A model generated the notes under the pieces. The model had not been told where the DNA came from and searched no databases. It was given only the letters and a program-made list of their open reading frames with translations. From IMG/VR virus record IMGVR_UViG_2713896901_000010: 35,122 nt of DNA. One strand, given 5' to 3'. This stretch comes from a virus. Its lineage: Duplodnaviria > Heunggongvirae > Uroviricota > Caudoviricetes. Below, one piece after another: positions 7,425-31,449 of the stretch. A program made the translations under genes and the position numbers. Each line of letters begins with the position of its first letter. Position 1 is the stretch's first letter.

Positions 7425-10141
7425 TATTTAGATCCCCACGAAAAGTAATCTTTAAATTTGTCCATACGTTCGTTATGCAGGCGCTGATACTGCTCATCCA
7501 GAGCGCGATGCTTGTCTTTGAAGTTTCGTATAGCCTGTCCACGCATAATTTCTTCCTGCTCGTACTGCTCCCGTTCCTGCTGCATTTTCTTATAGGGTTC
7601 CCAATCTTCTAGTGATGGTTCCCAACGCATAGGACGCCCATGTTTGTTATAAAACGGCTGGACCCGATCGATGCCATTTTCATCCTTAGTTCTTACCATA
7701 ATGGCGTAATCACCATTACGGGGTGTTAACACGTCAGGGGTTATGAATAATTCTCCATTAATACGACTCTCAGGGGTTTTTGTCTCAACTACAGGAGCAT
7801 TACCTGACGTGATCCCAAGCAACGTCGGGCTGGTTGTTATAATCTCTTTGCGCTCACCGTACATCAGCCGTTCTTTTTCAGCTTTCCACTGCGCCGCCTG
7901 CCAGCCTGACGGCCCATATTGATAAAGCGCCTCCGGTGCATATTTCATAAACTGCGCTTCTCCGTTAACCTCGCTGATACTCCAGGTGCGGGCTATCTGC
8001 TGGTTGGTCATTTGCTTCGCTACGTCAGCGTTACCACCAGCAACGCGGTAGTTAATGTCATACAGCGTCTGATAGTCATTACGGAATCTAGCTGCTTCCG
8101 GCGTCTGGTCATCCGCAGACGGATCCCAACGGAACCACTGCGCCATATTGCTGACAGCAGAATTCATCGCCTTGCTGCGATCATTTTTGTACTCTTTTGA
8201 ACTCTGCGTTGATGCCAATTGAGCTTTAAGAGCATCGGTCTGGTTGTACGTAAGGTTCTGCGCCTGCTCGATAGCCGCATCAGCAGACATGCCAGAATCA
8301 GTTAGTTGCTTAACAGTCAGATAAAAACCCTGCATATCCTTCGGCATATTTCCAATAGATGCATTGTCTGTTTCATATAACCGACTAAACAGTTCCGCCG
8401 CATTTTTAACCACTTCCTGATTGCTGGATCGGGATACTGCTGAAAGCTGCGTGATGACCTGCGAAGGCATTATGCCAGTCTGAGCCACAAGCCGAACAAC
8501 CCCATCATGAGTGGAGGCATCATTAATACGAAAGTTCTGCGCCATTTCTGTGTAATCAGCAGCTTTCTGCATTGACTTGTTGCTTGGGTCTAATTTTTCA
8601 CCTATTGTCAGCGCCTCATTGAATCTGCGTGAATCCCGTTGCGCCTGAATTGCTTCATTTGATCTCTGAAGCAATGCAGACAATTTTCCGTAAGCATCGA
8701 GTTTTAACGCATAGTGAGGATCGTTAACCTCAGGCTTCACTTTCTGCATTTCTTCTTGCTGCTGAGAAGGAGGCAAATACTGAATTGCCTGGAATATTCT
8801 CGCGTTATCAATCGCTATATCCAGTTGATTGATTATTTTATCTGCGTTTTTTCCATACCCCCTGATGATGGTCTCCTGAGCCGGTATATAATCTGGAACC
8901 TCACCGTTATATAGCTGGGCCATGGTGTTATTAATAGCTGGCTCAAGCTGTTCTAATATTAACTTCCTTTGCTTTTCTATCTGACTATTAGCAAGGTTAT
9001 CTATTTGATAAATAGTCAGCGGATCCATTCCAGTTTTATTTTTTCTATATCGGGAAAGCCACCCTTGTGTTTCTGATGGAAGATTTCGGATAAATTCTTC
9101 TTCTGATATTTCACCTTTACGTGGATCACCGACTTTGGCGATCAGTTTATCCACGTTACCCATCCCCCAGTTATATGCTGCTCCGGTCAATATTTCGGAA
9201 CCGTACTTACCATACAGTTGATTTACATAGTCACTGGCGAGCATTTCATGCTGTTGTTCGTCCGTAGGGTTGTATTCAACGCCACGCTTGGCCGCCAGTT
9301 CTTTTCCTGTGCCCGGCATTAACTGGTATTTCCCCTGGGCTCTCTCTCCAGAAGATGTTATCGGTCCCTCAAGAAGACTACCATCAGGATTAAAATGTCG
9401 ATCACCTGATTCAACAAGGCGTATGGCACGCATGTCCATGCCTCCAGAATCATTTTTCTGAAACAGACCATTTAGCCATCCTTCTGGATTGGCAGCGGCA
9501 TAATTCTTCGCCCGCATTTCTGTGGCACTGCGATCATCACTTTCTATTTCTTCCAGAATGCGTTCTTGTGACCATCCCCTGGCAGCTCCATATCTGGCAA
9601 TGGCTACCATTCTGGAATTTCTGGCTAAAGTGGCAGTTTGCGGGTCATTCCAGGCATCCGCTTCATTTTGTATCCATAATTTTCTCGTTGCCTGATATTG
9701 CTCATCTTCATAGGCATTTGTCTGCCCTATCTCATGTCTGAGAACTCCAGTACTGAACTGAATTTTCTGTGTTCTGGCTTGTTGCAAAAACATATTTCTT
9801 GCAGCTTCATCAGTCAATGAAGCAGCTATTTCTTCCACATCCTGATCAAATCCAGATATGTACTCTTGCCCCTTACCAATCGCATTTTTGCCTTGTTGTG
9901 CATAAAAACCGGTTTGAGGGTTATAAAGACGTTCATTGCTGCGCTGATTAAGCTGAAGGATGGCATCCTGAGACAATGCAACATTCGCTTTCTGCCTGGC
10001 TTCACCATATGCCACCGCATACTGATCTGCGACATTCGCCAGCACCTGACCTGCTTGAGGAACATCGAAGGTCTGAAAACCACCGGTTTGCACACCACGA
10101 CTTTGCACCTGGCGTCCGGATGTAGTAGGAACAACAGGCAT
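7424..10141 (-). CDS. internal virion protein with soluble lytic transglycosylase (SLT) domain (905 aa)
   Basis: Residues ~235-330: LVESGDRHF...SSGERAQGKYQLMPGTGKE...AAYNWGMGNV match the SLT E-S...S-x-GA-x-G-LMQ...AYNAG signature. Confidence 0.8.
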   Translation of the reverse strand: MPVVPTTSGRQVQSRGVQTGGFQTFDVPQAGQVLANVADQYAVAYGEARQKANVALSQDAILQLNQRSNERLYNPQTGFYAQQGKNAIGKGQEYISGFDQDVEEIAASLTDEAARNMFLQQARTQKIQFSTGVLRHEIGQTNAYEDEQYQATRKLWIQNEADAWNDPQTATLARNSRMVAIARYGAARGWSQERILEEIESDDRSATEMRAKNYAAANPEGWLNGLFQKNDSGGMDMRAIRLVESGDRHFNPDGSLLEGPITSSGERAQGKYQLMPGTGKELAAKRGVEYNPTDEQQHEMLASDYVNQLYGKYGSEILTGAAYNWGMGNVDKLIAKVGDPRKGEISEEEFIRNLPSETQGWLSRYRKNKTGMDPLTIYQIDNLANSQIEKQRKLILEQLEPAINNTMAQLYNGEVPDYIPAQETIIRGYGKNADKIINQLDIAIDNARIFQAIQYLPPSQQQEEMQKVKPEVNDPHYALKLDAYGKLSALLQRSNEAIQAQRDSRRFNEALTIGEKLDPSNKSMQKAADYTEMAQNFRINDASTHDGVVRLVAQTGIMPSQVITQLSAVSRSSNQEVVKNAAELFSRLYETDNASIGNMPKDMQGFYLTVKQLTDSGMSADAAIEQAQNLTYNQTDALKAQLASTQSSKEYKNDRSKAMNSAVSNMAQWFRWDPSADDQTPEAARFRNDYQTLYDINYRVAGGNADVAKQMTNQQIARTWSISEVNGEAQFMKYAPEALYQYGPSGWQAAQWKAEKERLMYGERKEIITTSPTLLGITSGNAPVVETKTPESRINGELFITPDVLTPRNGDYAIMVRTKDENGIDRVQPFYNKHGRPMRWEPSLEDWEPYKKMQQEREQYEQEEIMRGQAIRNFKDKHRALDEQYQRLHNERMDKFKDYFSWGSK

Positions 10142-11180: not shown

Positions 11181-13651
11181 CAGAATCCCCCAACAGTAAG
11201 GCGAGGAATAACGGCAAGAACAGACAGAGGCAACGGGTCAAGCTGACGGATTCTTACGCGTCCGTTTTTACCCCAGTTACTGTCCAGTTTCACTTCTACT
11301 TTTCCGGTAGCGTCATCAACAGGATCATCGTAGAACTCGAATTCACGCTGTGGATATTCGTACCATTTACCGCCGGGCGTAGTCGCCCAGATGCCGCGAC
11401 TGGCATTCACAACCAGAGTAACGGAGGGGATCACCTGTTTTTTGTCCAGCAGCGTTTCCTGTCCGTTAATGTTGATATCCAGTGTTTCGAATTCAGCAGT
11501 TATTGGCAGGCCGATGTGCACTACAGCCCCCGGAGATTCCAGCGTGACGGCACCTCCGGAAACCACTTTCTGTGGTTCCACGTTCGCATCAGAGAGAATG
11601 TTTACGGTCTGGCCTTCAAGATGAGACAGGCCTCCAAATGTCCGGCGCGCCATCTGCCAGTTCGTGGTGGCCACATTCCTGAGGGATGGCGGGACGTTCC
11701 TGTTAGCACGAACCACTACAGCGGTATTGCTGGTTACAGAAATAATGTCGCAACGTAATTCTTTTGACACCTCATCGCCAGTATCAGGATCAGTTCCGGT
11801 ATAAGGGAACTGTAGTTGCGCGCCGACATCACTACTGGTGAAGTACGCACCACCAGAAACACTGATTGTATATTCCGCGCGGTAATCCCATTCGCCAGAA
11901 CCACCAGTGATGATCATCGTTCTGTCAGACGTATTTCTTCCATCATAGCTAAGGCCAGAATCAACAAAGAAAGCATCTTCATCGCTGGTAAATAAACGGC
12001 TGGACAGTCGCTCGATGTATCTCACTGTTTGCCCGTTAACGGTTCGGTTAACGACGAAATACACCGCATCTTCATTGCCTTCGCTGATACTGCATGTGCT
12101 TTCATATTTTCCGGTACTGGATTGTGGTGCCCATGCAAAAACCTGCTGATCACGCAAATAGGTCATCACCAGTAATTTACCGTCATCACGAATGCAGAAG
12201 GCGCTGGAGTAAGGGACAATCGAGAAGCACCAGTCAACAATGCTGTGCTTCTGAAAAAGATGATTAGCAAGGATGGTCAGGTCGTTCCCCTGATAGCCGT
12301 CAACATCGAATGAGTAGGCCAGATCACGGACAACGCTGCCTTTCTCCTGGACGAACAGAGCAATATTCGCCACAGCAATTGGTGGGACGTTGCTTGAGCC
12401 ATTTGATCCCTGAGAGCTGAATGCAAATGATGATGGGGTTAACACTTTGTTCTGGTCGCCGGTGATGACGTACTCACCTCCGGAAGTCAGCGCCACCAGC
12501 GAACCAACATCAATCAGGTGGCGGATCTCATTAACCTGACGCCCGGCATAGGTGTAGATAATTCTGTCGTCATCCTGCGTAGGATTGCTTTTGCCAAAAT
12601 CCTTATAATCCCCGGTACGGCTGGCCCAGATAGTCTGAGGGAACGCAGTCGATGCGGCGAAGTAAAGACGTTGTTGATAATAAACAACAGTGCCAGGATA
12701 ACCATTAACACTGTTCCAGGCATATTTAGCCCATTTATAGCTGGCATTATCCTCGCCAACTACCTGCGAAGGGATATAGGAAATCACCTCGGCAGTTGCA
12801 GTAGTTCCATTTGCAGCAGTGATACGGGCAATGCCAAAACCACTGTGCAGATATTCCCACTCAATGCCAGTATCATCATCACCGGATCCACCCCAGCCAT
12901 CCCATGATGTGCCTTCTGTATGCGAAGGGCGCAAAGTACCTGTTTTGCCTGCTGTAACGGCGCGATAGTAGTTACTGTCTGCACGGCGAATATCGCCAAT
13001 CGACGTACTCTTACTGGTTTCCCATACCGGCACCGAATCCACTGCAGGCTGTTCCAGATAGAACAATTTGCCTACCTGCTCCGCGCCAAAAATAGAGGCG
13101 CTTGCCGTTAACGTAATTGTCCCGGTGCTGGCGCTGGCATAAACCGTCACTGACTCGTCAATATTGATATCTTCAAATGGCCCGTTCTTCGTTACCACAT
13201 CAACCAGTTGCCAGTTGTCATGCGCATAGCGGCGCAACTCTTTCGGCGGGTATGAAGGGTGAACCAGCGTAAGCACGTCGGCGCTTTGCGTGAATTTAAT
13301 TCGGAACAGATCGGCTTCAGTATATGGCGTGGCAATTTCATAAATAACATTGCTGCTGTTCAGCACCAATGCACCATCTTTGATAACGCGCATGTACTGG
13401 TGCCCGAACTCCAGAGCATAGGTCTGAACCGTCGAGAACTGGAACGGGATCAGGCGGCATTTCCGATTTGGGTATTTGGCGGCACCGACAAAACGCGTAC
13501 CAGGTCGATTCTCAACGCCGCCATACTGCCGCACGATAAAGTTATCGCACTTGCGCAATGCCACCTGGTACTTCGCCATGTCGATACGACCGTACAACGA
13601 CGGTCCAATCTCACCACCGGCAAAGCTGGGCTGGATCCAACTGATAGCCAT
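11180..13651 (-). CDS. tail tubular protein B / nozzle-like (823 aa)
   Basis: Immediately follows the tubular-A-like gene with overlapping stop/start; size close to T7 gp12 (794 aa). Confidence 0.65.
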   Translation of the reverse strand: MAISWIQPSFAGGEIGPSLYGRIDMAKYQVALRKCDNFIVRQYGGVENRPGTRFVGAAKYPNRKCRLIPFQFSTVQTYALEFGHQYMRVIKDGALVLNSSNVIYEIATPYTEADLFRIKFTQSADVLTLVHPSYPPKELRRYAHDNWQLVDVVTKNGPFEDINIDESVTVYASASTGTITLTASASIFGAEQVGKLFYLEQPAVDSVPVWETSKSTSIGDIRRADSNYYRAVTAGKTGTLRPSHTEGTSWDGWGGSGDDDTGIEWEYLHSGFGIARITAANGTTATAEVISYIPSQVVGEDNASYKWAKYAWNSVNGYPGTVVYYQQRLYFAASTAFPQTIWASRTGDYKDFGKSNPTQDDDRIIYTYAGRQVNEIRHLIDVGSLVALTSGGEYVITGDQNKVLTPSSFAFSSQGSNGSSNVPPIAVANIALFVQEKGSVVRDLAYSFDVDGYQGNDLTILANHLFQKHSIVDWCFSIVPYSSAFCIRDDGKLLVMTYLRDQQVFAWAPQSSTGKYESTCSISEGNEDAVYFVVNRTVNGQTVRYIERLSSRLFTSDEDAFFVDSGLSYDGRNTSDRTMIITGGSGEWDYRAEYTISVSGGAYFTSSDVGAQLQFPYTGTDPDTGDEVSKELRCDIISVTSNTAVVVRANRNVPPSLRNVATTNWQMARRTFGGLSHLEGQTVNILSDANVEPQKVVSGGAVTLESPGAVVHIGLPITAEFETLDININGQETLLDKKQVIPSVTLVVNASRGIWATTPGGKWYEYPQREFEFYDDPVDDATGKVEVKLDSNWGKNGRVRIRQLDPLPLSVLAVIPRLTVGGF

Positions 13652-14259
13652 CAGGACAACCTCGCAATGGTAAACTCGTCAACCGGTGGCTGTGGTTCCT
13701 GTGATTCATTCTGGCTATGCGAGCCAGCACTAAGAATCACGCGATTGTACATATTGAGGGCAAACGTACCGAGGTCTGCATTCCCAGTCAGCGCCATGTT
13801 AATAGCTGCCGCAAGACGCCAGGCCAACGCCTCCATAAAAATGGCATCAAACATGTTCACATCTGAAACGCGAGATACATACTTGAGCCATGCCTGCGGC
13901 TGGTCTGTGTAGATCAACTTTCCTGTTCCGTTGGTGTCTGCACCAACTTCGTACTGAACGCGCATTGCTGCTGTTGGATTGCGTACACCAGGAAGCATAA
14001 TTTCAGTAATGCGCAGACAATCTGACGGGTACTGGTACGCATATTCCCAGTCAGGCGGTGGATTGTTCGTATCTGCAAGCGCCACGCGTTTGGTAGCAAA
14101 GTTCCAGTCAAAATCAGAAAGCACAGCATCACGGCAGGCCTCAAAGTGCAGCGAACATTCCCCCGCTTCCTTGCTGGCTTCCGTCAGGCTGTTAATGCTG
14201 CGGCTGTTGCCAATATTGGACAGTGCACGATTACAGATCTCTACTACAGAGGCCATCAC
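13651..14259 (-). CDS. tail tubular protein A / adaptor-like (202 aa)
   Basis: N-terminus ICNRALSNIG...SINSLTE...DWNF follows the T7 gp11 pattern (VNDILASIGEPPVSTLE...GWTFN); size matches gp11 (196 aa). Confidence 0.7.
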   Translation of the reverse strand: MMASVVEICNRALSNIGNSRSINSLTEASKEAGECSLHFEACRDAVLSDFDWNFATKRVALADTNNPPPDWEYAYQYPSDCLRITEIMLPGVRNPTAAMRVQYEVGADTNGTGKLIYTDQPQAWLKYVSRVSDVNMFDAIFMEALAWRLAAAINMALTGNADLGTFALNMYNRVILSAGSHSQNESQEPQPPVDEFTIARLS

Positions 14260-14585
14260 TCCCCCCCGTTACCGTAGAGGGTTTCAGCCGCTGATTTTTC
14301 TACATCACCGGAAACAGGAGCGATTGCCATATCAGTGATCTGCAGATCGGCGCTGCGATTAACACCATCGTCAGTTTCTCTGGCAGACAGGCCTCGAATA
14401 ACAGCCTTTGCAGTTATCATCACTTCTGTTCCGACGCCCTGAGGTTGCGCCTTCAGCTTATTCAATGTGTCGTTATTAAGAGTGATGCACAGCCCCCACG
14501 GGTATTCATCGCGAGTTCTGGTTTCTCCGCTCTCATCCTGGTAGCTGTCAGTGCCGGTTTTGAGGTTTACGAGTTCCATATACAC
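14256..14585 (-). CDS. hypothetical virion-module protein (109 aa)
   Basis: AGGAG RBS after an intercistronic hairpin; 4-bp overlap with downstream gene. Confidence 0.45.
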   Translation of the reverse strand: MYMELVNLKTGTDSYQDESGETRTRDEYPWGLCITLNNDTLNKLKAQPQGVGTEVMITAKAVIRGLSARETDDGVNRSADLQITDMAIAPVSGDVEKSAAETLYGNGGE

Positions 14586-14629
14586 TCCTGCAATAAAGGG
14601 GCCGAAGCCCCTTGTCGGATTCGCGAGGC

Positions 14630-14974
14630 TTACACGCCCAGTTCTTTACGCTTATCTGCGATCTTCTCGCGGAGCGTTTCGGCTTTAGCGTTATGGTGTG
14701 GCTTCTCGTTAAAGAGCAATTCGTACTCTTCACGGAGCTTATCCAGTTCACCATCATCTGACACATCGTTGATGATTTTGGTGCTGGTTGCTGCCATAGA
14801 CACCTTTCCTGCTACCTTTGCTTTTGCCTGTCTGGCTGCATCGTTAACAGGTTCCAGTGCGCTACCAGGCTCACCTTTGTATTCGATTTCTGCCCCCTCC
14901 GGCCACAGTGTGTTATGGATATGAGAGAGGCGCAGAACGCGGTATCTTGGTTTCTCACCTGACATCGATATCAC
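14630..14974 (-). CDS. hypothetical virion-module protein (114 aa)
   Basis: In-operon ORF between capsid and tail genes. Confidence 0.45.
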   Translation of the reverse strand: MISMSGEKPRYRVLRLSHIHNTLWPEGAEIEYKGEPGSALEPVNDAARQAKAKVAGKVSMAATSTKIINDVSDDGELDKLREEYELLFNEKPHHNAKAETLREKIADKRKELGV

Positions 14975-14975
14975 C

Positions 14976-15413
14976 TTAACCAGTTACTTTTGAGCGGATC
15001 GGGTACGGCGTATTGGCATCAACATCCAGACTGATACCCGCAGTGAATTTGCCGGCCGTTAGTGGGCCAGTTGCGACGGAGTAGTTAACACGCAGATATC
15101 GCTGAACACCGGCTGGCACCTTTGCAGAAACAACTCGCTTACCTACTGTCAGGGTGGCCTTTGCCAACGCACCACTATCATAAATAGTGGTCCAAGAGCT
15201 GTTATTCTCACTCGTCTGCAACTGGATGTTTACAGTTGCCTCACCACTTGCCGTGGCAGCTTCGTTAACCAGCGTCCAAAACTCAAGCGGGTAACCCACG
15301 CCAATATCGCGACGGTTTCCATCAATTGGACCGAGATCGATTACGTCAGTAGAAGCCGCGGTATCAGTTACCGCCTGTGCTTCGGAGAACATCAACAGTT
15401 TGTCGGTGATCAT
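14976..15413 (-). CDS. hypothetical head-associated protein (145 aa)
   Basis: GGAG RBS 8 nt upstream of ATG 15413, directly after the capsid gene and a hairpin. Confidence 0.5.
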   Translation of the reverse strand: MITDKLLMFSEAQAVTDTAASTDVIDLGPIDGNRRDIGVGYPLEFWTLVNEAATASGEATVNIQLQTSENNSSWTTIYDSGALAKATLTVGKRVVSAKVPAGVQRYLRVNYSVATGPLTAGKFTAGISLDVDANTPYPIRSKVTG

Positions 15414-15464
15414 CTTCTTTCTCCATTAGTGGGTCTGTTACGACCCACAGGTTAATAACAGGCG

Positions 15465-16451
15465 TTACACCACGCGGGCTTCTGTTTCCAGAAGCGCATC
15501 AGTTTCACGGATTGGTACACCACGGAATGACGTCCACCACTCGCCTTCAGTCTCTTTTACGCTAATCGCCAGAGATGTTTTCTCCAGAGACTGCAAATCA
15601 AGAGCCTGGCCTACAGTGCGGTTCATGTAGAACACCGGGCGACCCATGCCACGATTTGGAATGCGATGCAGTGCTTTAACCATCAACTTCGCAATATTTG
15701 CGGCAGAGGAAGGTTCTGAAAGATTGCTGACATCGATGTTTGCAATGCGAACAACATAACGCCAGTCACGCAGAGCAAGTCCGTTATCCCATTTGTAATG
15801 GGTGCGATAACCTTCGTACTTGCCGCCATTAGCATCTTCCAGTGTCACCTGGCCTTTATCTTCCATCTGGATGCCAGCCTTCTGCCCTTTAGGGAAGATG
15901 CCATGCACGGTGTTTTCTCCCCACACCACTAACCAGATTGAGGTGTTATCTGTACCCGTGCCACCAGCATCAATGATGTTCTGAGCATTACCCGCAGACA
16001 GGCTGGAATAGCGGGAGGACAGTCCCATAAACTGCTGAGGGTTAACGCTGGAATCACCATAAAACAGCGTCTGCGCCATCTGCTGATTCATCGCTTCAAT
16101 AAATGCGCGGTCTTCAGACAGGCGGAATTCGGCGGTATTACCGTTCAGATCAGCCAGTGACTTATCGACTTCAGCATAGGTTTCCAGCATGCCAACGGAG
16201 TCGGTGACCTGCACTGTGGTTGATTTGCTTGGCTGTACGCCATAGTTCAGCAAACGCCAGGTAGCTGAAGGTAAACCAGAACGAATGGTGGTTCGGTGTC
16301 CGGTAGGAAGGTTCCCTTCGACAAAAGGCATATCCTGAAGGATCGGGTTAGTTTGACCGAGAAGCTCGATAATCTTATCGACTTTCCCGTTTGGATCGAC
16401 GCGCTTACCCCAGTCAGCCAGCGTTAGCGCAGTTAAGCCTTTAACAGCCAT
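15465..16451 (-). CDS. major capsid protein (328 aa)
   Basis: Position after the scaffold gene; size typical of podovirus major capsid proteins. Confidence 0.75.
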   Translation of the reverse strand: MAVKGLTALTLADWGKRVDPNGKVDKIIELLGQTNPILQDMPFVEGNLPTGHRTTIRSGLPSATWRLLNYGVQPSKSTTVQVTDSVGMLETYAEVDKSLADLNGNTAEFRLSEDRAFIEAMNQQMAQTLFYGDSSVNPQQFMGLSSRYSSLSAGNAQNIIDAGGTGTDNTSIWLVVWGENTVHGIFPKGQKAGIQMEDKGQVTLEDANGGKYEGYRTHYKWDNGLALRDWRYVVRIANIDVSNLSEPSSAANIAKLMVKALHRIPNRGMGRPVFYMNRTVGQALDLQSLEKTSLAISVKETEGEWWTSFRGVPIRETDALLETEARVV

Positions 16452-16465
16452 TGTTATTTCCTCTC

Positions 16466-17167
16466 TTATTTGCCATAGAGCACTTCGGCCGCACTACGCT
16501 GGCCTTCATTACCACCGGTGACCATGCCATCTTCAGACATCGCCTTTCCGATTTTCACGAACGTTTTGACCAGATCAGGGTGATTACCCAGTCCGGTTGT
16601 GTTCAGATATTCTTTGAGTTCAGGTGTCCCGAACTGGTCAAGCGCACGCTGTGCGGCGCTAAGGTTAGAAATCAACTTGTCGCCACCGATTTCTTTGTCA
16701 GCTTTTACATCAGCAGCCCACTGCTCGGTCGTTTTCTGCCAGGCTTCTGCCTGACGCTGCTGCACACCTGCCAGAATCTTCGGATAAGCATCAACCAGCT
16801 TTTGCGCTTGCTCGTTGGTCAGGTTAAGTTCTCGCGCTACCGGCTCGAATTCCTTCAACGCTTCTGTATCCAGCTCTACGCCTTCGGCAGCATGAAATTC
16901 GTACTTCTCCGGCGCACCATCTGGTTTATCGCCGTCCTTTTTTTCATCCTGCTTATCGTTTTCAGGCTTTTTGTCATCAGCAGGTTTATCGCCATCAGCA
17001 ACAGGTTGTGGCTTATCACCTTCCTGTTGTGATGGATCACCAACTGGGGCAGGGTTATCACCTGCAGGCGCTGACGGTTCTGACGCAGCCGGAGCTGCTC
17101 CACCATCGACTTGTTGCTCATTGCAAAGACGGCGATACAGCAAACGCTCAAATAAACTCATGATCAC
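16466..17167 (-). CDS. scaffolding protein (233 aa)
   Basis: Acidic low-complexity stretch DKPADDKKPENDKQDEKKDGDKPD; located between portal and capsid genes. Confidence 0.6.
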   Translation of the reverse strand: MIMSLFERLLYRRLCNEQQVDGGAAPAASEPSAPAGDNPAPVGDPSQQEGDKPQPVADGDKPADDKKPENDKQDEKKDGDKPDGAPEKYEFHAAEGVELDTEALKEFEPVARELNLTNEQAQKLVDAYPKILAGVQQRQAEAWQKTTEQWAADVKADKEIGGDKLISNLSAAQRALDQFGTPELKEYLNTTGLGNHPDLVKTFVKIGKAMSEDGMVTGGNEGQRSAAEVLYGK

Positions 17168-17460
17168 TCCTGTTCACTGGCCTCTTTGGCCATCTTCAAA
17201 TACTGTTCAGGGCAATGCGCCATAACGCGCTGAAACAGTTCCAGCGCCAGATTGCGTTGCCCCTCATTAAATGCCATTGCCATAGCGTCCATCGGTGAGA
17301 TAGCGGAAAACACACGGCCTTTCTCCAGCACCGACCAGACAACGCGACGCCCCTGTTCACTGCTCATGACAAAGCGAATGTCATCAATTTCACGCTGTGC
17401 CATGTCACGTTGCTTACGGGCGTTTTCTTCTTTCAGTTGATCGTCTTCGTAATCTGTCAT
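17164..17460 (-). CDS. hypothetical protein (98 aa)
   Basis: ATGA-type overlaps with portal stop and scaffold start. Confidence 0.45.
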   Translation of the reverse strand: MTDYEDDQLKEENARKQRDMAQREIDDIRFVMSSEQGRRVVWSVLEKGRVFSAISPMDAMAMAFNEGQRNLALELFQRVMAHCPEQYLKMAKEASEQE

Positions 17461-19136
17461 TGTGATTGCCCACCCTGACCACTAACTGCATTCGCCATAG
17501 CTGACAAAACACTCGGATCCGAAGTTTTAGCTTCGCTTAGCGTCTTGGCACCCTGTGCCGCCGCCATCCCCATCGCCATCATTTGTTGCTGCTGTTGTTG
17601 CTGTGCCCGTTGCTGGCGAGCCTGCTCAACCTGTTCCTGCGGAACAATGACGGTTGGAGACACTCCGGACATATCAGCGAATGCATCGATCGCCTGATCA
17701 ACGTTGAGTTTGTCGAGAGCTTCTGGTTTCGCTTGCGCAAGTTGACCAATGAAGTTGACCGTGGATGCCAGACTAGACAGGCCGATAGACTTCTGCGCCT
17801 GAGCCATGACGGAAATGTATTCGACCTTCAGGGGCATACCTTCCATCGCGTCAGGCGGTGGCGGCAGCATGTTTTTACGCACCATCATCGAGAAAGCGCG
17901 GTCAATGAGAGGATTAAGACATTCGTCGTTCAGACGCTCCAGAACCGGCCCCAACATCAGAAGTTTTTCTTCTTTCATTTCGATCACCGCTTCAACAGGC
18001 ATCGAGCGGGTATTGATGTTCTGCAACATCATGAACAGATCGACAAAGTAGGCGCTGTTAATGATTTGACGAGTGTCCTGAATGTCTGCCACCAAATCTG
18101 CTGTACTGGGGTTAACCAGATAAGCAGGCCTGAAACCATCCTGACCAGTAATCTGATCGATATACGTGATGTCGCCAGGAAGAAGGGAGGCACGCTGATT
18201 CTTGAGGGAAGTCGGAGCAACCATCGGCGGATTGGTGGCTTTATCAATCAACTGCGACTTGCGCTTCTGGAGAAGCTGCAATGCCTTAACAGGTCCAAGC
18301 GCCAGCATACCCGGGCATGATGATCCATAAACATCTTCGCCGTTAACTTCCCAGCGCGGAGCCATAATTGGAAACTCATCGAATCCGGACTCACGCAACA
18401 ACTTGTCGTTATCGCCACCAACCTCGTAATAAACCGATTTGAATGGCTTGTTCTTGCTATCCAGCTTCGATGTATCGCGGTCAATGTTCGGGTAAACCGA
18501 ATGCATCACTTCAATCCACTTCTCGTAGGTGCCGCTTTCCCACATGCTTTTTACGGATTCGCTGACGTTATTTAGTCCGAATTCCTGAACAAGCTGACGA
18601 ACAGTCATAGAGAACTTACGAAAACAGGTGTCCACACTGCCACGAGGTGAGTTAGCCAGGTAGTAACTTCCTATCGGGAATGGCATTGTACGAATGATGT
18701 CCTCGTCATCCTCCAGCACCGCCATTGCGCCAGTGCTGTATGTGCCGAGGCTTCCGTATAACTGCGGCAGCGACTGATAGAGATTCGACTTATTGAACAT
18801 ATCGTTCATGCGGTTCTGCACCGCCTCAAGCCACAACTTAACAGGGCCATAATCCATCATTTCAGGATCTGGCGTAGCCAGGCGAAACCACGGACGCGCG
18901 GGGCTTGTGATGCCAGACATCATGCCGCTGGCGAGAGTACGCGCCGCCATAGTCCCGGTCGAATCAATAATGCGTGTATTGCGTCGATCGTTACGGTTGA
19001 CCTCAGAAGTCAGAAAGCGGGAACCACGCGGGTTGATGTAATCACTCAACTCGCGCCAGTGCGGCTCGAACGACTGACGCTCGCTTTCAAGTTGTGCGAA
19101 CTGTTTGTTCAATCGCTCTTTAGTTGTTTCCGCCAT
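17457..19136 (-). CDS. portal protein (559 aa)
   Basis: ATG 19136 with GGAG 8 nt upstream; size and position after terminase typical for portal; Gln-rich C-terminus. Confidence 0.85.
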   Translation of the reverse strand: MAETTKERLNKQFAQLESERQSFEPHWRELSDYINPRGSRFLTSEVNRNDRRNTRIIDSTGTMAARTLASGMMSGITSPARPWFRLATPDPEMMDYGPVKLWLEAVQNRMNDMFNKSNLYQSLPQLYGSLGTYSTGAMAVLEDDEDIIRTMPFPIGSYYLANSPRGSVDTCFRKFSMTVRQLVQEFGLNNVSESVKSMWESGTYEKWIEVMHSVYPNIDRDTSKLDSKNKPFKSVYYEVGGDNDKLLRESGFDEFPIMAPRWEVNGEDVYGSSCPGMLALGPVKALQLLQKRKSQLIDKATNPPMVAPTSLKNQRASLLPGDITYIDQITGQDGFRPAYLVNPSTADLVADIQDTRQIINSAYFVDLFMMLQNINTRSMPVEAVIEMKEEKLLMLGPVLERLNDECLNPLIDRAFSMMVRKNMLPPPPDAMEGMPLKVEYISVMAQAQKSIGLSSLASTVNFIGQLAQAKPEALDKLNVDQAIDAFADMSGVSPTVIVPQEQVEQARQQRAQQQQQQQMMAMGMAAAQGAKTLSEAKTSDPSVLSAMANAVSGQGGQSQ

Positions 19137-19784: not shown

Positions 19785-19861
19785 GTGGCATTAGCTCAGT
19801 TGGACAGAGCAACCGCCTTCTAAGCGGTTGGTCGCAGGTTCGAATCCTGCATGCCACGCCA
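19785..19861 (+). tRNA. tRNA-Arg (anticodon UCU), phage-encoded
   Basis: Manual cloverleaf: acceptor GTGGCAT/ATGCCAC, U8, D-stem GCTC/GAGC with GG in loop, anticodon stem ACCGC/GCGGT, loop CUUCUAA, T-stem GCAGG/CCTGC with TTCGAAT loop, discriminator G, encoded CCA; differs from E. coli argU as I recall it. Confidence 0.9.
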
Positions 19862-19904
19862 GAATCACGCCTAAGGACCGTGATGCCAGAAGTTCCAGGT
19901 GCTT

Positions 19905-19946
19905 GGCGGTGATGGTTTCCCTTGAAGGACTATCACCGCCCTTTTT
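19905..19946 (+). terminator. hairpin terminator downstream of tRNA
   Basis: ggcggtgat...atcaccgcc 9-bp stem, long loop, then CTTTTT. Confidence 0.5.
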
Positions 19947-20118
19947 ACAGCAGGACGCCATTGCGATGACTTCATGCTGTAAACCCGTACAGCCACGGAA
20001 GGCATAACTCATTGCTTCCAGTTCGCCCTGTTCGCCGGGTATTTTTTTACTTGAATTTTACCCTCAACAAACCAACATAGAACTTGGCATTTGCCATAAC
20101 TTTCACAAGGAGTCAGCC

Positions 20119-20429: not shown

Positions 20430-21905
20430 TTATGCATAAGGGTCATAATCCGTTATGGCCCTTCCCTGCTGGCTTTGCTGTCCTGGTATATTTATGCGTT
20501 TCGACACCGGGAAAGCAAACGTCAGCAGTAGCGCATCGCCTTTACCCAGCGAACGCCCAAGACGCTCTTTGATATCTTCCTTCGGTTCGATAACGATTTT
20601 ACCGTCCACACGAACTTTGTACTCTGCCGCCGACAGGTCGTCTGCAGTTTCCTGGTCATCCAGCATGCCGCCCAGCCTCAGCCATGTCTTGCATGAATTG
20701 AACATCTCCCCACGCTTGTTGAGCATCTGCGGGTCAGTAGACGCGCCACCGAACGGAACAAGTTGCCATGTACGACCCCATCCGTCACCGATTGACTTCA
20801 GACCGGTTCCGTAACCGAAGTCGATGAACACCGCGTCAGCCTGGTACTGGTCTTCAAAGTCAGCGATACGCTTCGCCATAATCAGATCGTCAGTGGTCTT
20901 GTTGCCAGTCCACAGCACCTTACTGTGCAGCCCCTGCCTCAGGTATATCACCGCGTCATCAACGCCTGAGTATGCCGGGTCAACGCCGATTATCACCGGA
21001 GCATGTGCAACCTGCACAGCGGTTACCACCCGTTTCATTGCCTCGTCAGTAAGGCCGGTAGGGATAAACTGCAATTCAGATGCATCCGGGAATATGCCGC
21101 GCACACGGATTTTAACGAAGTCGCTGTCTTCCCCGTAGTCATCAACCCATTTCTGCAACTGCTGTTTGTTAGTGCCTTCCACCGTCCGGCTGTCAATCTG
21201 CGCAGTTTTCCAGCGGTGTTTATATTTGCGGAAACATTCGCGGAAACGTCCGGTGTTACGTGTAGGGTTTCCAAACGCCACCCAGATAATCTCAGTGTCT
21301 TCGTCCGTAAGCGCACCCTCAGCAACTTCCCACACCAGATCCGCAATGTTCGACGCTTCATCGAATACCACGATGATGCGTTTGCGCTCGTTGTGTAGTC
21401 CGGCGAATGCCTCAGTGTTGTGCTCAGACCAGGGGATTGCGTCAGCTCGCCACCGCTTGTCGTGCCCAGGGTCATTGCTGTACATCGCGGTAGCGGTACA
21501 GGTAAACCAGTCTTTCGTGATAGCAAGGTTCGACCACTTGATAATTTCCGGCCAGGTCTTCGTTCGTAGCTGGTTGTCGGTGTTGGCGGTCACCACGACC
21601 TTACAATCCTCGCAAGTGGACATGCCCCAGTTGATCAGCATTGAGATGAATGCGGATTTACCAATACCGTGACCAGAAGCGCGTGCCAGCATAAGCGGCT
21701 GATAGCGCGTCTCTGGATTCTGCAGGTGATCACGTATCTCTCGGAACGCATCAGCCTGCCACTGACGTGGGCCGGTAGCATGTGCCAGTTCAGTCCCCTC
21801 TTCCCCCCAAGGGAACGCATAGAGGGCATAGCCAAGCGGATCGTGAGTGAACCCTGCAATATCCTCGATTAACTGCTCTTCAGGAGATAACGCTGTATCT
21901 GTCAC
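20430..21905 (-). CDS. terL: terminase large subunit (491 aa)
   Basis: GTG start overlapping terS stop (GTGA); Walker-A-like ARASGHGIGKS near N-terminus; size and position. Confidence 0.9.
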   Translation of the reverse strand: MTDTALSPEEQLIEDIAGFTHDPLGYALYAFPWGEEGTELAHATGPRQWQADAFREIRDHLQNPETRYQPLMLARASGHGIGKSAFISMLINWGMSTCEDCKVVVTANTDNQLRTKTWPEIIKWSNLAITKDWFTCTATAMYSNDPGHDKRWRADAIPWSEHNTEAFAGLHNERKRIIVVFDEASNIADLVWEVAEGALTDEDTEIIWVAFGNPTRNTGRFRECFRKYKHRWKTAQIDSRTVEGTNKQQLQKWVDDYGEDSDFVKIRVRGIFPDASELQFIPTGLTDEAMKRVVTAVQVAHAPVIIGVDPAYSGVDDAVIYLRQGLHSKVLWTGNKTTDDLIMAKRIADFEDQYQADAVFIDFGYGTGLKSIGDGWGRTWQLVPFGGASTDPQMLNKRGEMFNSCKTWLRLGGMLDDQETADDLSAAEYKVRVDGKIVIEPKEDIKERLGRSLGKGDALLLTFAFPVSKRINIPGQQSQQGRAITDYDPYA

Positions 21906-22498
21906 TGATTGCCATCCTGACGTTCTTTGAGTCGCTTCCTGGCTGCTGCTATGCGATCAGCAATTGTCACACTCACATTAACATCCAGGCGTTCTTTGAA
22001 TGCGTTGACGTCGACGTGCTTACCAATCAGTTCGAGGTTCTTCACCTTGTCAGGCCACTTAATTTTTTTGAGGATTGTCTCTATCGAATCCTCGTTCATG
22101 TTCATGATGGTCGATGACAGATCAAAGCCGCTAAGCGTAGTGCGCCAGATTTTCGGCCACTCGCGGATTGGTTTAAGGCTCCCATCGTCGTTGAGGATGT
22201 CGATCACGTCCATCTGGTCGATCTCCACCAGGCGCATGAGAACGTAATCAGCACTGACGCGCATTCGTTTGTTGCGCTCCTCCATCAACTCGGCAATCCG
22301 TTTCTGAATGCGTTCATCGCGCATCATGACACTGGCTTTAACTGCCGCTGTATTTGGGGAGAATCCTGCGTTAATCGCTGCCTGAGTCTGGTTTTCAGGC
22401 GTTTTGATGTATGACTGGCAATAAGCCTCCTGCATTGCTGTTAGTGGCTTAAATTGCGTTGATTTGCGTTTATAGGTTTTAGGTTCAGCAGGCATCAT
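21902..22498 (-). CDS. terS: terminase small subunit (~197 aa)
   Basis: Immediately upstream of and overlapping terL; basic helical N-terminal region; likely start is the ATG pair 22498/22495 rather than table TTG 22576. Confidence 0.75.
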   Translation of the reverse strand: MMPAEPKTYKRKSTQFKPLTAMQEAYCQSYIKTPENQTQAAINAGFSPNTAAVKASVMMRDERIQKRIAELMEERNKRMRVSADYVLMRLVEIDQMDVIDILNDDGSLKPIREWPKIWRTTLSGFDLSSTIMNMNEDSIETILKKIKWPDKVKNLELIGKHVDVNAFKERLDVNVSVTIADRIAAARKRLKERQDGNQ

Positions 22499-22530
22499 AA
22501 CCACCGTGGTAATAGTTACCGTTGTGGTAA
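22498..22530. promoter_or_regulatory. tandem operator dyads upstream of terS (sites D2 and D1)
   Basis: 22516-22530 ttacc gttgt ggtaa (10/10); 22498-22512 taacc accgt ggtaa (9/10) overlapping the terS start codon and GGTGG RBS. Confidence 0.55.
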
Positions 22531-22540
22531 TAGTACCATG

Positions 22541-22567
22541 CAAAATAAAGCCGCCATAGTTGGCGGC
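22541..22567 (-). terminator. rho-independent terminator upstream of the late operon
   Basis: On minus strand GCCGCCA-acta-TGGCGGC followed by TTTATTTTG. Confidence 0.65.
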
Positions 22568-22608
22568 AGTATTCAAAACACATCAAATTCATCATGCATA
22601 ACCTACTC

Positions 22609-22620
22609 GTGACATGTCAC
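22609..22620. repeat. 12-bp perfect palindrome GTGACATGTCAC (copy 2 of 2)
   Basis: Identical to 1958-1969; overlaps stop codon of 22617-22958. Confidence 0.5.
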
Positions 22621-22958
22621 ACTATTAATTTCGTTTCATGCCAGCCTTTAGTCACCCAGCATTGCGAGTCACCATTGCACGGGCATGAATTAACTGGAAC
22701 TCTCTCGCCGCACTTACCGCAACGTTTTCTGCTGATCGATTTTATACGCCCGTGCACGCGAGCATCATCCTGGCGGATAAGTAACGCAATATACTCACCA
22801 AATTCGTAAGGCACACGCCCGGGGCGACGCGTGGCACAGTTACGCTCCAGCATTTCAATTTCCTGAGCATCAAGCACAATCTCCAGCTTACGTACACCGG
22901 ATGCAGCTTGTCTGGCTCTCTGAGCGGCTTTGCGCTCTGCTGCTGATTTAGCCATCAA
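22617..22958 (-). CDS. hypothetical protein with C-terminal Cys4 cluster (113 aa)
   Basis: AGGTG RBS before ATG pair at 22958; C-terminal CGKCGERVPVNSCPCNG suggests a zinc ribbon. Confidence 0.5.
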   Translation of the reverse strand: MMAKSAAERKAAQRARQAASGVRKLEIVLDAQEIEMLERNCATRRPGRVPYEFGEYIALLIRQDDARVHGRIKSISRKRCGKCGERVPVNSCPCNGDSQCWVTKGWHETKLIV

Positions 22959-29003: not shown

Positions 29004-29031
29004 GATATGAAAAGACCGCCGGATGGCGGTC
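29004..29031 (-). terminator. tR1-like hairpin terminator after the cro-like gene
   Basis: On minus strand GACCGCC-atcc-GGCGGTC followed by TTTTCATAT. Confidence 0.5.
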
Positions 29032-29053
29032 TACAGAGGTTTGTGGCTGGATA

Positions 29054-30023: not shown

Positions 30024-30044
30024 GATCATAGTTTTCAGTAAGTA

Positions 30045-30068
30045 AGCCGCCTTCTGGCGGCTTTTTTA
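30045..30068 (+). terminator. rho-independent terminator after the repressor gene
   Basis: agccgcc-ttct-ggcggct followed by TTTTTT. Confidence 0.8.
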
Positions 30069-30631: not shown

Positions 30632-31449
30632 AACCGGGAATTTATTTCGACATCAGCAACGAAGACTACCACGCCGGTGACGGCGTGAGTAAGTCGCAAC
30701 TGGACATGGTTGCCAAGAATCCGGCGCTTCTTAAATGGGTTCAGGCAGCACCAGAAGACGAAGAGAAAAAGTCTGCACTGGATATGGGAACCGCATTGCA
30801 CTGTCTGCTTCTGGAACCTGGAGAATTCGACAAACGCTTCATCGTTTCACCGAAATTCGATCGTCGGACAAAACAAGGTAAAGCTGACGAAGAAGCATTT
30901 CTTCGTGATGTGGCGGATATGGGTATTACGGTACTTGATGTCGAGCAGTGGCGAAAACTGGAGCTGATGCGTGATAGCGCAATGGCTCATCCGGCAGCAC
31001 GCTGGATGTTGGAAGCACCTGGTTACTGCGAAGCATCAATGTACTGGAACGATGAAGAGACGGGTGAGTTGTGCCGAATTCGTCCAGACAAATGGCTGAA
31101 CGAGCACAACGTGATCGTCGACGTGAAAAAGGTTGCAGATATGGACCGTTTTGCACGCCACATCGAGGAATTCCGCTACCACGTGCAGGACGCAATGTAC
31201 CGCGAAGGCGCAATGAGGGTTACTGGTCAGACGCATGGTTTTTTCTTTCTTGCCGTGAGCGAAAGCATTGATTGTGGTCGGTATCCGGTACGCGTGTTCG
31301 AGCTGGACGCGCCGGATGTCGATGCCGGGCACGCTCTGTTCCGCCGGGATCTGAATACCTATCACGAATGCCGCATCAACGATGAATGGGGCGGAGTGGA
31401 AATTATTAAACGCCCTGACTGGGCACGTAAACAGGATATGTACGTATGA
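30628..31449 (+). CDS. PD-(D/E)XK-family exonuclease (RecE/YqaJ-like), partner of the annealing protein (273 aa)
   Basis: N-terminal GIYFDISNEDYHAGDGVSKSQL, HCLLLEPGEFDKRF, and D-x-K in IVDVKKV; translationally coupled to the downstream annealing-protein gene. Confidence 0.65.
   Translation: MKPGIYFDISNEDYHAGDGVSKSQLDMVAKNPALLKWVQAAPEDEEKKSALDMGTALHCLLLEPGEFDKRFIVSPKFDRRTKQGKADEEAFLRDVADMGITVLDVEQWRKLELMRDSAMAHPAARWMLEAPGYCEASMYWNDEETGELCRIRPDKWLNEHNVIVDVKKVADMDRFARHIEEFRYHVQDAMYREGAMRVTGQTHGFFFLAVSESIDCGRYPVRVFELDAPDVDAGHALFRRDLNTYHECRINDEWGGVEIIKRPDWARKQDMYV

Follow-up and report, generated by a model that had tools for sequence, protein, structure and literature searches.

The late operon of a phiV10-like prophage carries two conserved intercistronic hairpins, both of which are probably functional in the polycistronic message; the one beyond the capsid gene would block exonucleases and the one two genes further on would act as a leaky Rho-independent terminator. 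We give this reading a probability of roughly 0.55. It draws on observed features, namely the structures, their compensatory changes, a sense-strand bias, the presence of a U-tract at one site and its absence at the other, and the placement of both hairpins. Termination, the exonuclease block and the resulting protein ratios are what these features would imply.

The window is a DNA stretch of 35,122 nucleotides in which the prophage, from E. coli, belongs to the genus Uetakevirus in the epsilon15 family. Between positions 14200 and 16500 its identity to Escherichia phage phiV10 is 97.4%, the more distant matches being phages of Enterobacter, Klebsiella and Salmonella. The virion genes occupy the minus strand as 13 consecutive genes, from 19136 to 4410, joined mostly by overlaps of 1-4 nt. 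Portal (17457-19136), a Bbp19-like protein (17164-17460) and protease (16466-17167) precede the major capsid protein (15465-16451), which is of the epsilon15 gp7 family (Pfam PF20911 GP7, E 2e-149) and shares 99.7% identity with the major head protein of phiV10. Next are gp8 (14976-15413), a Bbp16-family capsid cement/decoration protein (Pfam PF21190, E 2e-47) with PDB matches to the cementing protein 3j4u_H and the decoration protein 8cjz_B; gp9 (14630-14965), a homologue of epsilon15 gp9 with 111 amino acids, assigned to phrog_590 (unknown function); and a gp10-like capsid decoration protein (14256-14579; Pfam PF21628 Gp10-like, E 1e-51) matching epsilon15 gp10 (3j40_N, E 2e-21). The first tail gene, gp11 (13651-14259), encodes a tail tubular protein A or adaptor-like product, 84.7% identical to its epsilon15 homologue, whose record calls it a tail protein and cites an HHpred match to T7 tail tubular protein A. 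From there to 4410 the operon consists of the large genes for tail and internal proteins. The phage thus carries two distinct proteins of the capsid-decoration type, gp8 (Bbp16-family cement) and gp10 (epsilon15 gp10-type).

Only two gaps among the 13 genes exceed 14 nt, of 51 and 50 nt, and each contains one hairpin. The first-pass annotation had reported two stable inverted repeats on the minus strand, between cistrons of the structural operon and each followed by a ribosome-binding site, and reading of the sequence confirms both at exactly the coordinates it gave.

Hairpin 1 (15429-15448, minus strand) lies in the 51-nt gap between the capsid stop and the gp8 start (15414-15464). It reads GUGGGUC-GUAACA-GACCCAC, with a 7-bp stem formed by GTGGGTC (15448-15442) and GACCCAC (15435-15429) around the loop GTAACA (15441-15436), and five of the seven pairs are G-C. 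The stem begins 16 nt past the capsid stop codon (TAA, 15467-15465), so that the earlier description of it as directly following the stop is slightly loose. On the 3' side are UAAU, the ribosome-binding site GGAG (15424-15421), 7 nt and the ATG at 15413; the hairpin thus ends 4 nt ahead of the Shine-Dalgarno sequence of gp8, the first gene beyond it. The predicted folding energy is -13.6 kcal/mol (z -4.4, equalled in 0 of 200 shuffles) and the pairing probability is about 0.99 whatever upstream context was tested. A covariance-model search of the window returned a single match.

Hairpin 2 (14596-14613, minus strand) is a weak intrinsic-terminator-like stem-loop in the 50-nt gap that separates the stop of gp9, the last gene ahead of it, from the start of gp10, the first gene past it (14580-14629). 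Its sequence is AAGGGGC-UUCG-GCCCCUU, the arms AAGGGGC (14613-14607) and GCCCCTT (14602-14596) enclosing the loop TTCG (14606-14603), and it starts 16 nt past the gp9 stop codon (TAA, 14632-14630). UAUUGC follows, then the ribosome-binding site AGGAG (14589-14585), 5 nt and the ATG at 14579, placing the end of the hairpin 6 nt before the gp10 Shine-Dalgarno sequence. The mechanical ORF call for gp10 starts at GTG-14585 and gives 109 amino acids. The true start is likely to be ATG 14579, with 107 amino acids as annotated in phiV10; the 109-aa gene of the first-pass annotation is the GTG-initiated frame. The predicted fold has an energy of -12.7 kcal/mol (z -2.9, 2 of 200 shuffles), with five G-C pairs out of seven and a UUCG loop. 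Counted from the last G-C pair on the minus strand, the tail UUUAUUGC (14590-14597) holds 5 U in 8 and is interrupted by an A; the first two U double as the basal pairs of the stem.

Alternative pairings around hairpin 2 were considered and rejected. A helix between a conserved CCUC past the gp9 stop and the gp10 Shine-Dalgarno sequence, which would enclose the hairpin, scores z of about 0 against shuffled flanks. An antiterminator-like fold of the gp9 3' end (GGGCGUGUAAGCCUC) with both arms prevails only at 30-35 nt of upstream context, and hairpin 2 has a probability of about 0.9 once that context reaches at least 60 nt; the L009, L014 and epsilon15 clades do not retain the competing fold.

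Could such hairpins be chance inverted repeats without function? About 12 perfect 7-bp stems would be expected by chance in 35 kb, and perfection of the stem is indeed not distinctive: the window holds 29 perfect hairpins of at least 7 bp, compared with 12.4 ± 2.7 in shuffled versions. It is placement, not stem perfection, that sets these two apart. At the two sites, a gap of some 50 nt would contain a 7-bp stem by chance with probability 0.011 and 0.013, and the product of the per-gap values gives a joint chance of about 1.4e-4. Together with compensatory conservation across distant hosts, described below, these comparisons leave a chance origin effectively refuted.

Relatives were gathered by their capsid protein, in species-representative genomes as well as in IMG/VR, with annotated phages added. 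At the position of hairpin 1 there is a hairpin in all 33 unique Enterobacterales-type sequences, in which the flanks are conserved and the stems differ. A gap-free alignment of 17 close relatives (A2) has 97.5% of cells paired and two covarying pairs. In an alignment of 29 relatives fitted to a covariance model (A3), and so biased towards the structure, 98.5% of cells are paired and six of the seven pairs show double-sided changes; none of 500 shuffles matched this pairing, and controls in which the alignment was slid were at most 53% paired. RNAalifold on its own predicts the same helix. A MAFFT alignment of the capsid-gp8 gap (A1) was dropped for pair counts because the 3' arm is one column off in several clades.

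Across the whole family, 100 unique sequences past the capsid stop were compared; 64 contain a contiguous stem of at least 7 bp, and the 5' arms of these stems come in 40 versions. The corresponding rates are 10% in shuffles and 17% in capsid coding windows. The hosts range from Enterobacterales to Betaproteobacteria (Dechloromonas, Thiobacillus and Vogesella among them) and include a Verrucomicrobia MAG. This contiguous-stem test replaced one based on energy alone with bulges allowed, which discriminates weakly in GC-rich relatives (66% against 24% of coding windows at -12 kcal/mol or below). Variation is also visible on a short timescale, in 80 IMG/VR loci (L032-L111) with a 100% identical capsid protein. 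The window type of hairpin 1 is present in 68 of them, five carry an extra, eighth A-U pair and one a double change from U-A to C-G; the others have U·G (two), C·A (one) or an otherwise broken stem (three). At one pair, then, a near-clonal prophage population runs through U-A, U·G and C-G. The changes T to C at 15443 and A to G at 15434 occur together in natural variants.

A perfect inverted repeat looks alike on either strand, and the two sites might be palindromes acting in the DNA as protein-binding sites or as recombination seams between modules, the latter in keeping with the position of hairpin 2 at a module border in distant relatives. We regard this as very improbable. Of 536 pairs in the hairpin 1 family 69 are G·U, each of which would read as an A·C mismatch in the complement, and in 50 cases as opposed to 11 it is the sense strand that folds more stably; the frequent G·U pairs and this bias point to RNA rather than a DNA palindrome. 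Stem sequences are wholly different between clades with pairing retained, and the loops vary, contrary to what a sequence-specific binding site would display. In the window the U-runs by the hairpins are on the sense side only. From these comparisons hairpin 1 is a genuine RNA-level element under selection on the sense strand.

Is it a terminator? Both hairpins are GC-rich stem-loops on the transcribed strand, as expected of intrinsic terminators. Efficient intrinsic termination by E. coli RNA polymerase also depends on a U-tract, for which about five or more U in 8 was taken as the threshold, and the hairpin 1 tail, UAAUGGAG, has 2 U in 8. In none of the 64 family members does a U-tract follow hairpin 1, the count ranging from 0 to 4 U in 8, and we conclude from this that it is not a canonical intrinsic terminator. 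A terminator score of the d'Aubenton-Carafa type gives d of -35 for hairpin 1 and about +1 for hairpin 2, so that the window copy of the latter is borderline by score even with its 5 U in 8. A simple terminator scan missed both hairpins; the stem of hairpin 2 had been extended into the U-run.

These figures bear on the simpler proposal that both hairpins are leaky transcription terminators and nothing more, with no part in RNA decay. Both are GC-rich, sense-oriented and in untranslated gaps, hairpin 2 fits terminator anatomy, and weak terminators are common in phage operons, where their use in balancing expression is documented (PMC9163698, citing the inefficient terminators of T7). The proposal nevertheless has to accommodate hairpin 1, whose tail and score are poor and whose U-tract is missing throughout the family, and we consider it somewhat unlikely. 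The first-pass annotation had offered partial terminators or RNA-stability elements for the pair. Our results divide these roles: termination suits hairpin 2, on its anatomy and a positional homologue in epsilon15, and stability suits hairpin 1, for which partial termination conflicts with the family-wide lack of a U-tract.

A block to 3' exonucleases that stabilizes capsid mRNA is the likeliest function of hairpin 1, to judge from its properties: it is stable, lies in an untranslated gap downstream of the more-required cistron, and is conserved in structure rather than in sequence. Intercistronic stem-loops that shield upstream mRNA from 3' exonucleases are exemplified by the malE-malF REP and by the puf operon of Rhodobacter. 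Hairpin 1 resembles these in being stable, in having no U-tract and in occupying an untranslated gap past the cistron needed most. REP elements are repeated genome-wide, in contrast to the single copy of hairpin 1 in the window. Membership of a REP/BIME-type repeat class was rejected, as the hairpin 1 model matches the window once and neither stem has a second copy among the hairpins listed for the window. epsilon15, with a gap of 12 nt, does without hairpin 1, as do about one-third of the distant relatives, with gaps of 9-31 nt, and we take it to be modulatory and dispensable rather than essential.

Two further classes were assessed. RNase III processing calls for an RNA duplex of about 20 bp or longer; both stems are of 7 bp and extended folds add only weak, non-conserved pairs, and an RNase III site was rejected. 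Rfam covariance models run over 13000-17000 assign neither hairpin to a family. The sole match in that interval is a chance microRNA (E 5.1; 16.5 bits, the gathering score being 60) located elsewhere.

The stem of hairpin 2 is invariant in all 80 of the IMG/VR loci already mentioned. Among 37 unique relatives the GGGG/CCCC core is likewise invariant and the two basal pairs covary, A-U in some and G-C in others; in one relative the topmost stem pair is U·G. Loop sequences are UUCG, GAAA, UUAG, UUCA and GGAU. All the tails are U-rich, from UUUAUUG and UUUCUUG to UUUUUUUUC, and extend to UUUUUUUU. On this evidence hairpin 2, too, is a genuine sense-strand RNA element under selection.

The closest known counterpart is in the Salmonella phage epsilon15 (NC_004775.2), where a rho-independent terminator is annotated between gp9 and gp10 at 7664-7686 (+), together with 7647-7681 (-); the annotation is itself a prediction rather than an experimental result. 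It corresponds to hairpin 2 in intergenic position and orientation, with a GC stem, a 4-nt loop, a U-rich tail and the gp10 ribosome-binding site next. The rebuilt stem reads CGGGGCC-AUUC-GGCCCCG with the tail CUUUUCU. On either side of the epsilon15 stem there are A- and U-runs, which account for its annotation as bidirectional, whereas the U-run of hairpin 2 in the window is shorter, interrupted and confined to the sense side. Neither hairpin is annotated in the record of phiV10 itself.

In a distant clade of relatives gp9 and gp10 were undetected by BLAST at this location, and a small gene lies between gp8 and a canonical terminator-like hairpin. Such a hairpin is present in 42 of 64 unique sequences, with a GC stem of 7-10 bp and 5-7 U in 8, and is positioned 17-21 nt upstream of the gp11 start. 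Since these equivalents adjoin gp11 and gp10 is missing there, the ancestral position of hairpin 2 is the border between head and tail modules; in the Uetakevirus clade the decoration gene gp10 lies between the terminator-like hairpin and gp11. Some betaproteobacterial relatives (L024 1707-1970; L117, L126, L178, L184) have a gp10-like gene upstream of the capsid gene and not past the terminator-like hairpin, so that gene order differs around a conserved hairpin. Family-wide, a hairpin lacking a U-tract follows the capsid gene and a hairpin with one precedes the tail module; the two-hairpin layout is therefore old.

The distances to neighbouring genes raise another interpretation, that the hairpins act mainly on the cistron downstream. 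After an upstream endonuclease cut they would be 5'-terminal stem-loops shielding gp8 and gp10 mRNA from RNase E, or they might shape the gp8 and gp10 ribosome-binding regions by insulation or as a standby site. Each ends 4-6 nt ahead of a Shine-Dalgarno sequence, the equivalents of hairpin 2 keep a fixed 17-21 nt from the next start codon, and abundant production of gp10 would be accounted for. In the distant clade, however, hairpin 1 is about 5 nt past the stop codon and 20-25 nt ahead of the Shine-Dalgarno sequence, a spacing that anchors it to the upstream gene and not to the ribosome-binding site. The helix that would sequester the gp10 Shine-Dalgarno sequence around hairpin 2 is no better than shuffled flanks, as noted above, and the U-tract of hairpin 2 is conserved, something a 5' stabilizer would not need. 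On balance we think a mainly downstream role unlikely.

The favoured reading, a leaky terminator at hairpin 2 with an exonuclease block at hairpin 1, can be set out in steps. Some polymerases would stop at the interrupted U-run of hairpin 2 (14597-14590) and those passing it would go on to transcribe gp10 and the genes for tail and internal proteins. Hairpin 1, most likely non-terminating, would block the 3'-to-5' exonucleases, PNPase and RNase II, as they degrade messages whose 3' ends arose further downstream by termination or endonucleolytic cleavage, and the segment ending with the capsid gene would outlive the distal message. The dose of mRNA would then fall stepwise, from the portal-to-capsid segment to gp8-gp9 and then to gp10 and the tail genes. 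Any termination at a hairpin must be partial, because essential genes lie downstream and a promoter scan found no promoter-like site near either hairpin, the nearest, inside gp8, scoring 9/12. If late transcription is antiterminated, the terminator function would be overridden. A literature search on phages of the phiV10/epsilon15 type found no transcript 3'-end, half-life or protein-ratio data.

How would this affect the proportions of head and tail proteins? The first-pass annotation held that the hairpins set head-to-tail protein stoichiometry, and this is only partly supported since the genes after both hairpins are head genes. Both precede head-decoration genes, and where head genes actually give way to tail genes, at gp10/gp11 (14259-14256), the two genes overlap by 4 nt and no hairpin is present. 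In its favour, the equivalent of hairpin 2 in distant relatives is at the head/tail border; the protein ratios would follow from the proposed mechanism. There is also a difficulty with gp10. In the epsilon15 structure 3J40, gp7 and gp10 each contribute 7 chains per asymmetric unit, and with gp10 chains equal in number to those of gp7 placing a terminator immediately ahead of gp10 looks self-defeating. Efficient translation may make up the difference, or gp10 may not be needed in strict proportion; it is among the proteins of epsilon15 given as dispensable in PMC7602432.

Comparison with T7 is instructive. The podophage gene order of portal, scaffold/protease, capsid and tail-tubular A/B is alike. 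T7 has the leaky terminator T-phi past capsid gene 10 and ahead of the tail genes, thought to keep capsid mRNA in excess; it has a U-tract and acts on the phage's own single-subunit RNA polymerase. Here the hairpin right past the capsid gene is without a U-tract, and the hairpin that has one is two genes further on. The phiV10 annotation includes no phage RNA polymerase gene and the host polymerase is presumably used.

A stronger proposition is that the two hairpins constitute a fixed two-part RNA module across a cross-phylum podophage lineage of the epsilon15/BPP-1 type, with a never-terminating stem-loop, free of a U-tract, beyond the capsid gene and a genuine terminator where head and tail modules meet. 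In that case hairpin 1 would have a dedicated function beyond generic exonuclease blocking, for example as the programmed 3'-end of a separate capsid mRNA or in recognition by a phage or host factor. We put this forward tentatively, as possible if doubtful.

The hairpins look like an ordinary, already known way for phages to tune the amounts of virion proteins; the comparative result is tidy, poses no challenge to current understanding and will not surprise the specialist. If confirmed, the mechanism explains how some 15 kb of virion genes, packed as one message, can yield hundreds of capsid subunits for a handful of tail proteins. The results should be of use in annotating Uetakevirus genomes, given that both features are lacking from the phiV10 record, and in engineering reporter phages based on phiV10, where expression of an insert would depend on its side of each hairpin. 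The absence of a U-tract past the capsid gene and its presence before the tail genes, in many hosts, provides a natural case that separates termination from RNA stability.

Other hairpins and palindromes in the window deserve mention. A perfect 7-bp hairpin, GCUUCUG-GAAA-CAGAAGC (15478-15495), lies in the last 12 codons of the capsid gene. It was rejected as a conserved element, and since synonymous changes (ACA/ACT/ACC) break it in relatives we consider it a by-product of the LLETE codons. On the plus strand at 19905-19940, a hairpin with a 14-bp stem (GGCGGTGATGGTTT...GGACTATCACCGCC) is followed by CTTTTT and falls inside a minus-strand p04-like ORF (19791-20012, phrog_4647); the corresponding stretch between terminase and portal in the epsilon15 record carries annotations of an RNase III site and a terminator. 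Further GC-rich, perfect, terminator-like hairpins are at 1870-1888, 1940-1957, 29013-29032, 30044-30063 and 30670-30687, and a palindrome with 11-bp arms, CTGCATTGTGA-TTT-TCACAATGCAG, is at 2758-2782.

Lastly, the perfect palindrome GCCGCCATAGTTGGCGGC (22550-22567) is at the extreme 5' end of the gene for the small terminase (21902-22576), immediately past a gene (22617-22958) whose product, encoded upstream of terS, has no Pfam match and only the generic phrog_536 assignment of 'transcriptional regulator'. A repressor-binding site is annotated at the corresponding place in the epsilon15 record, and this region may be a control region of the late operon.
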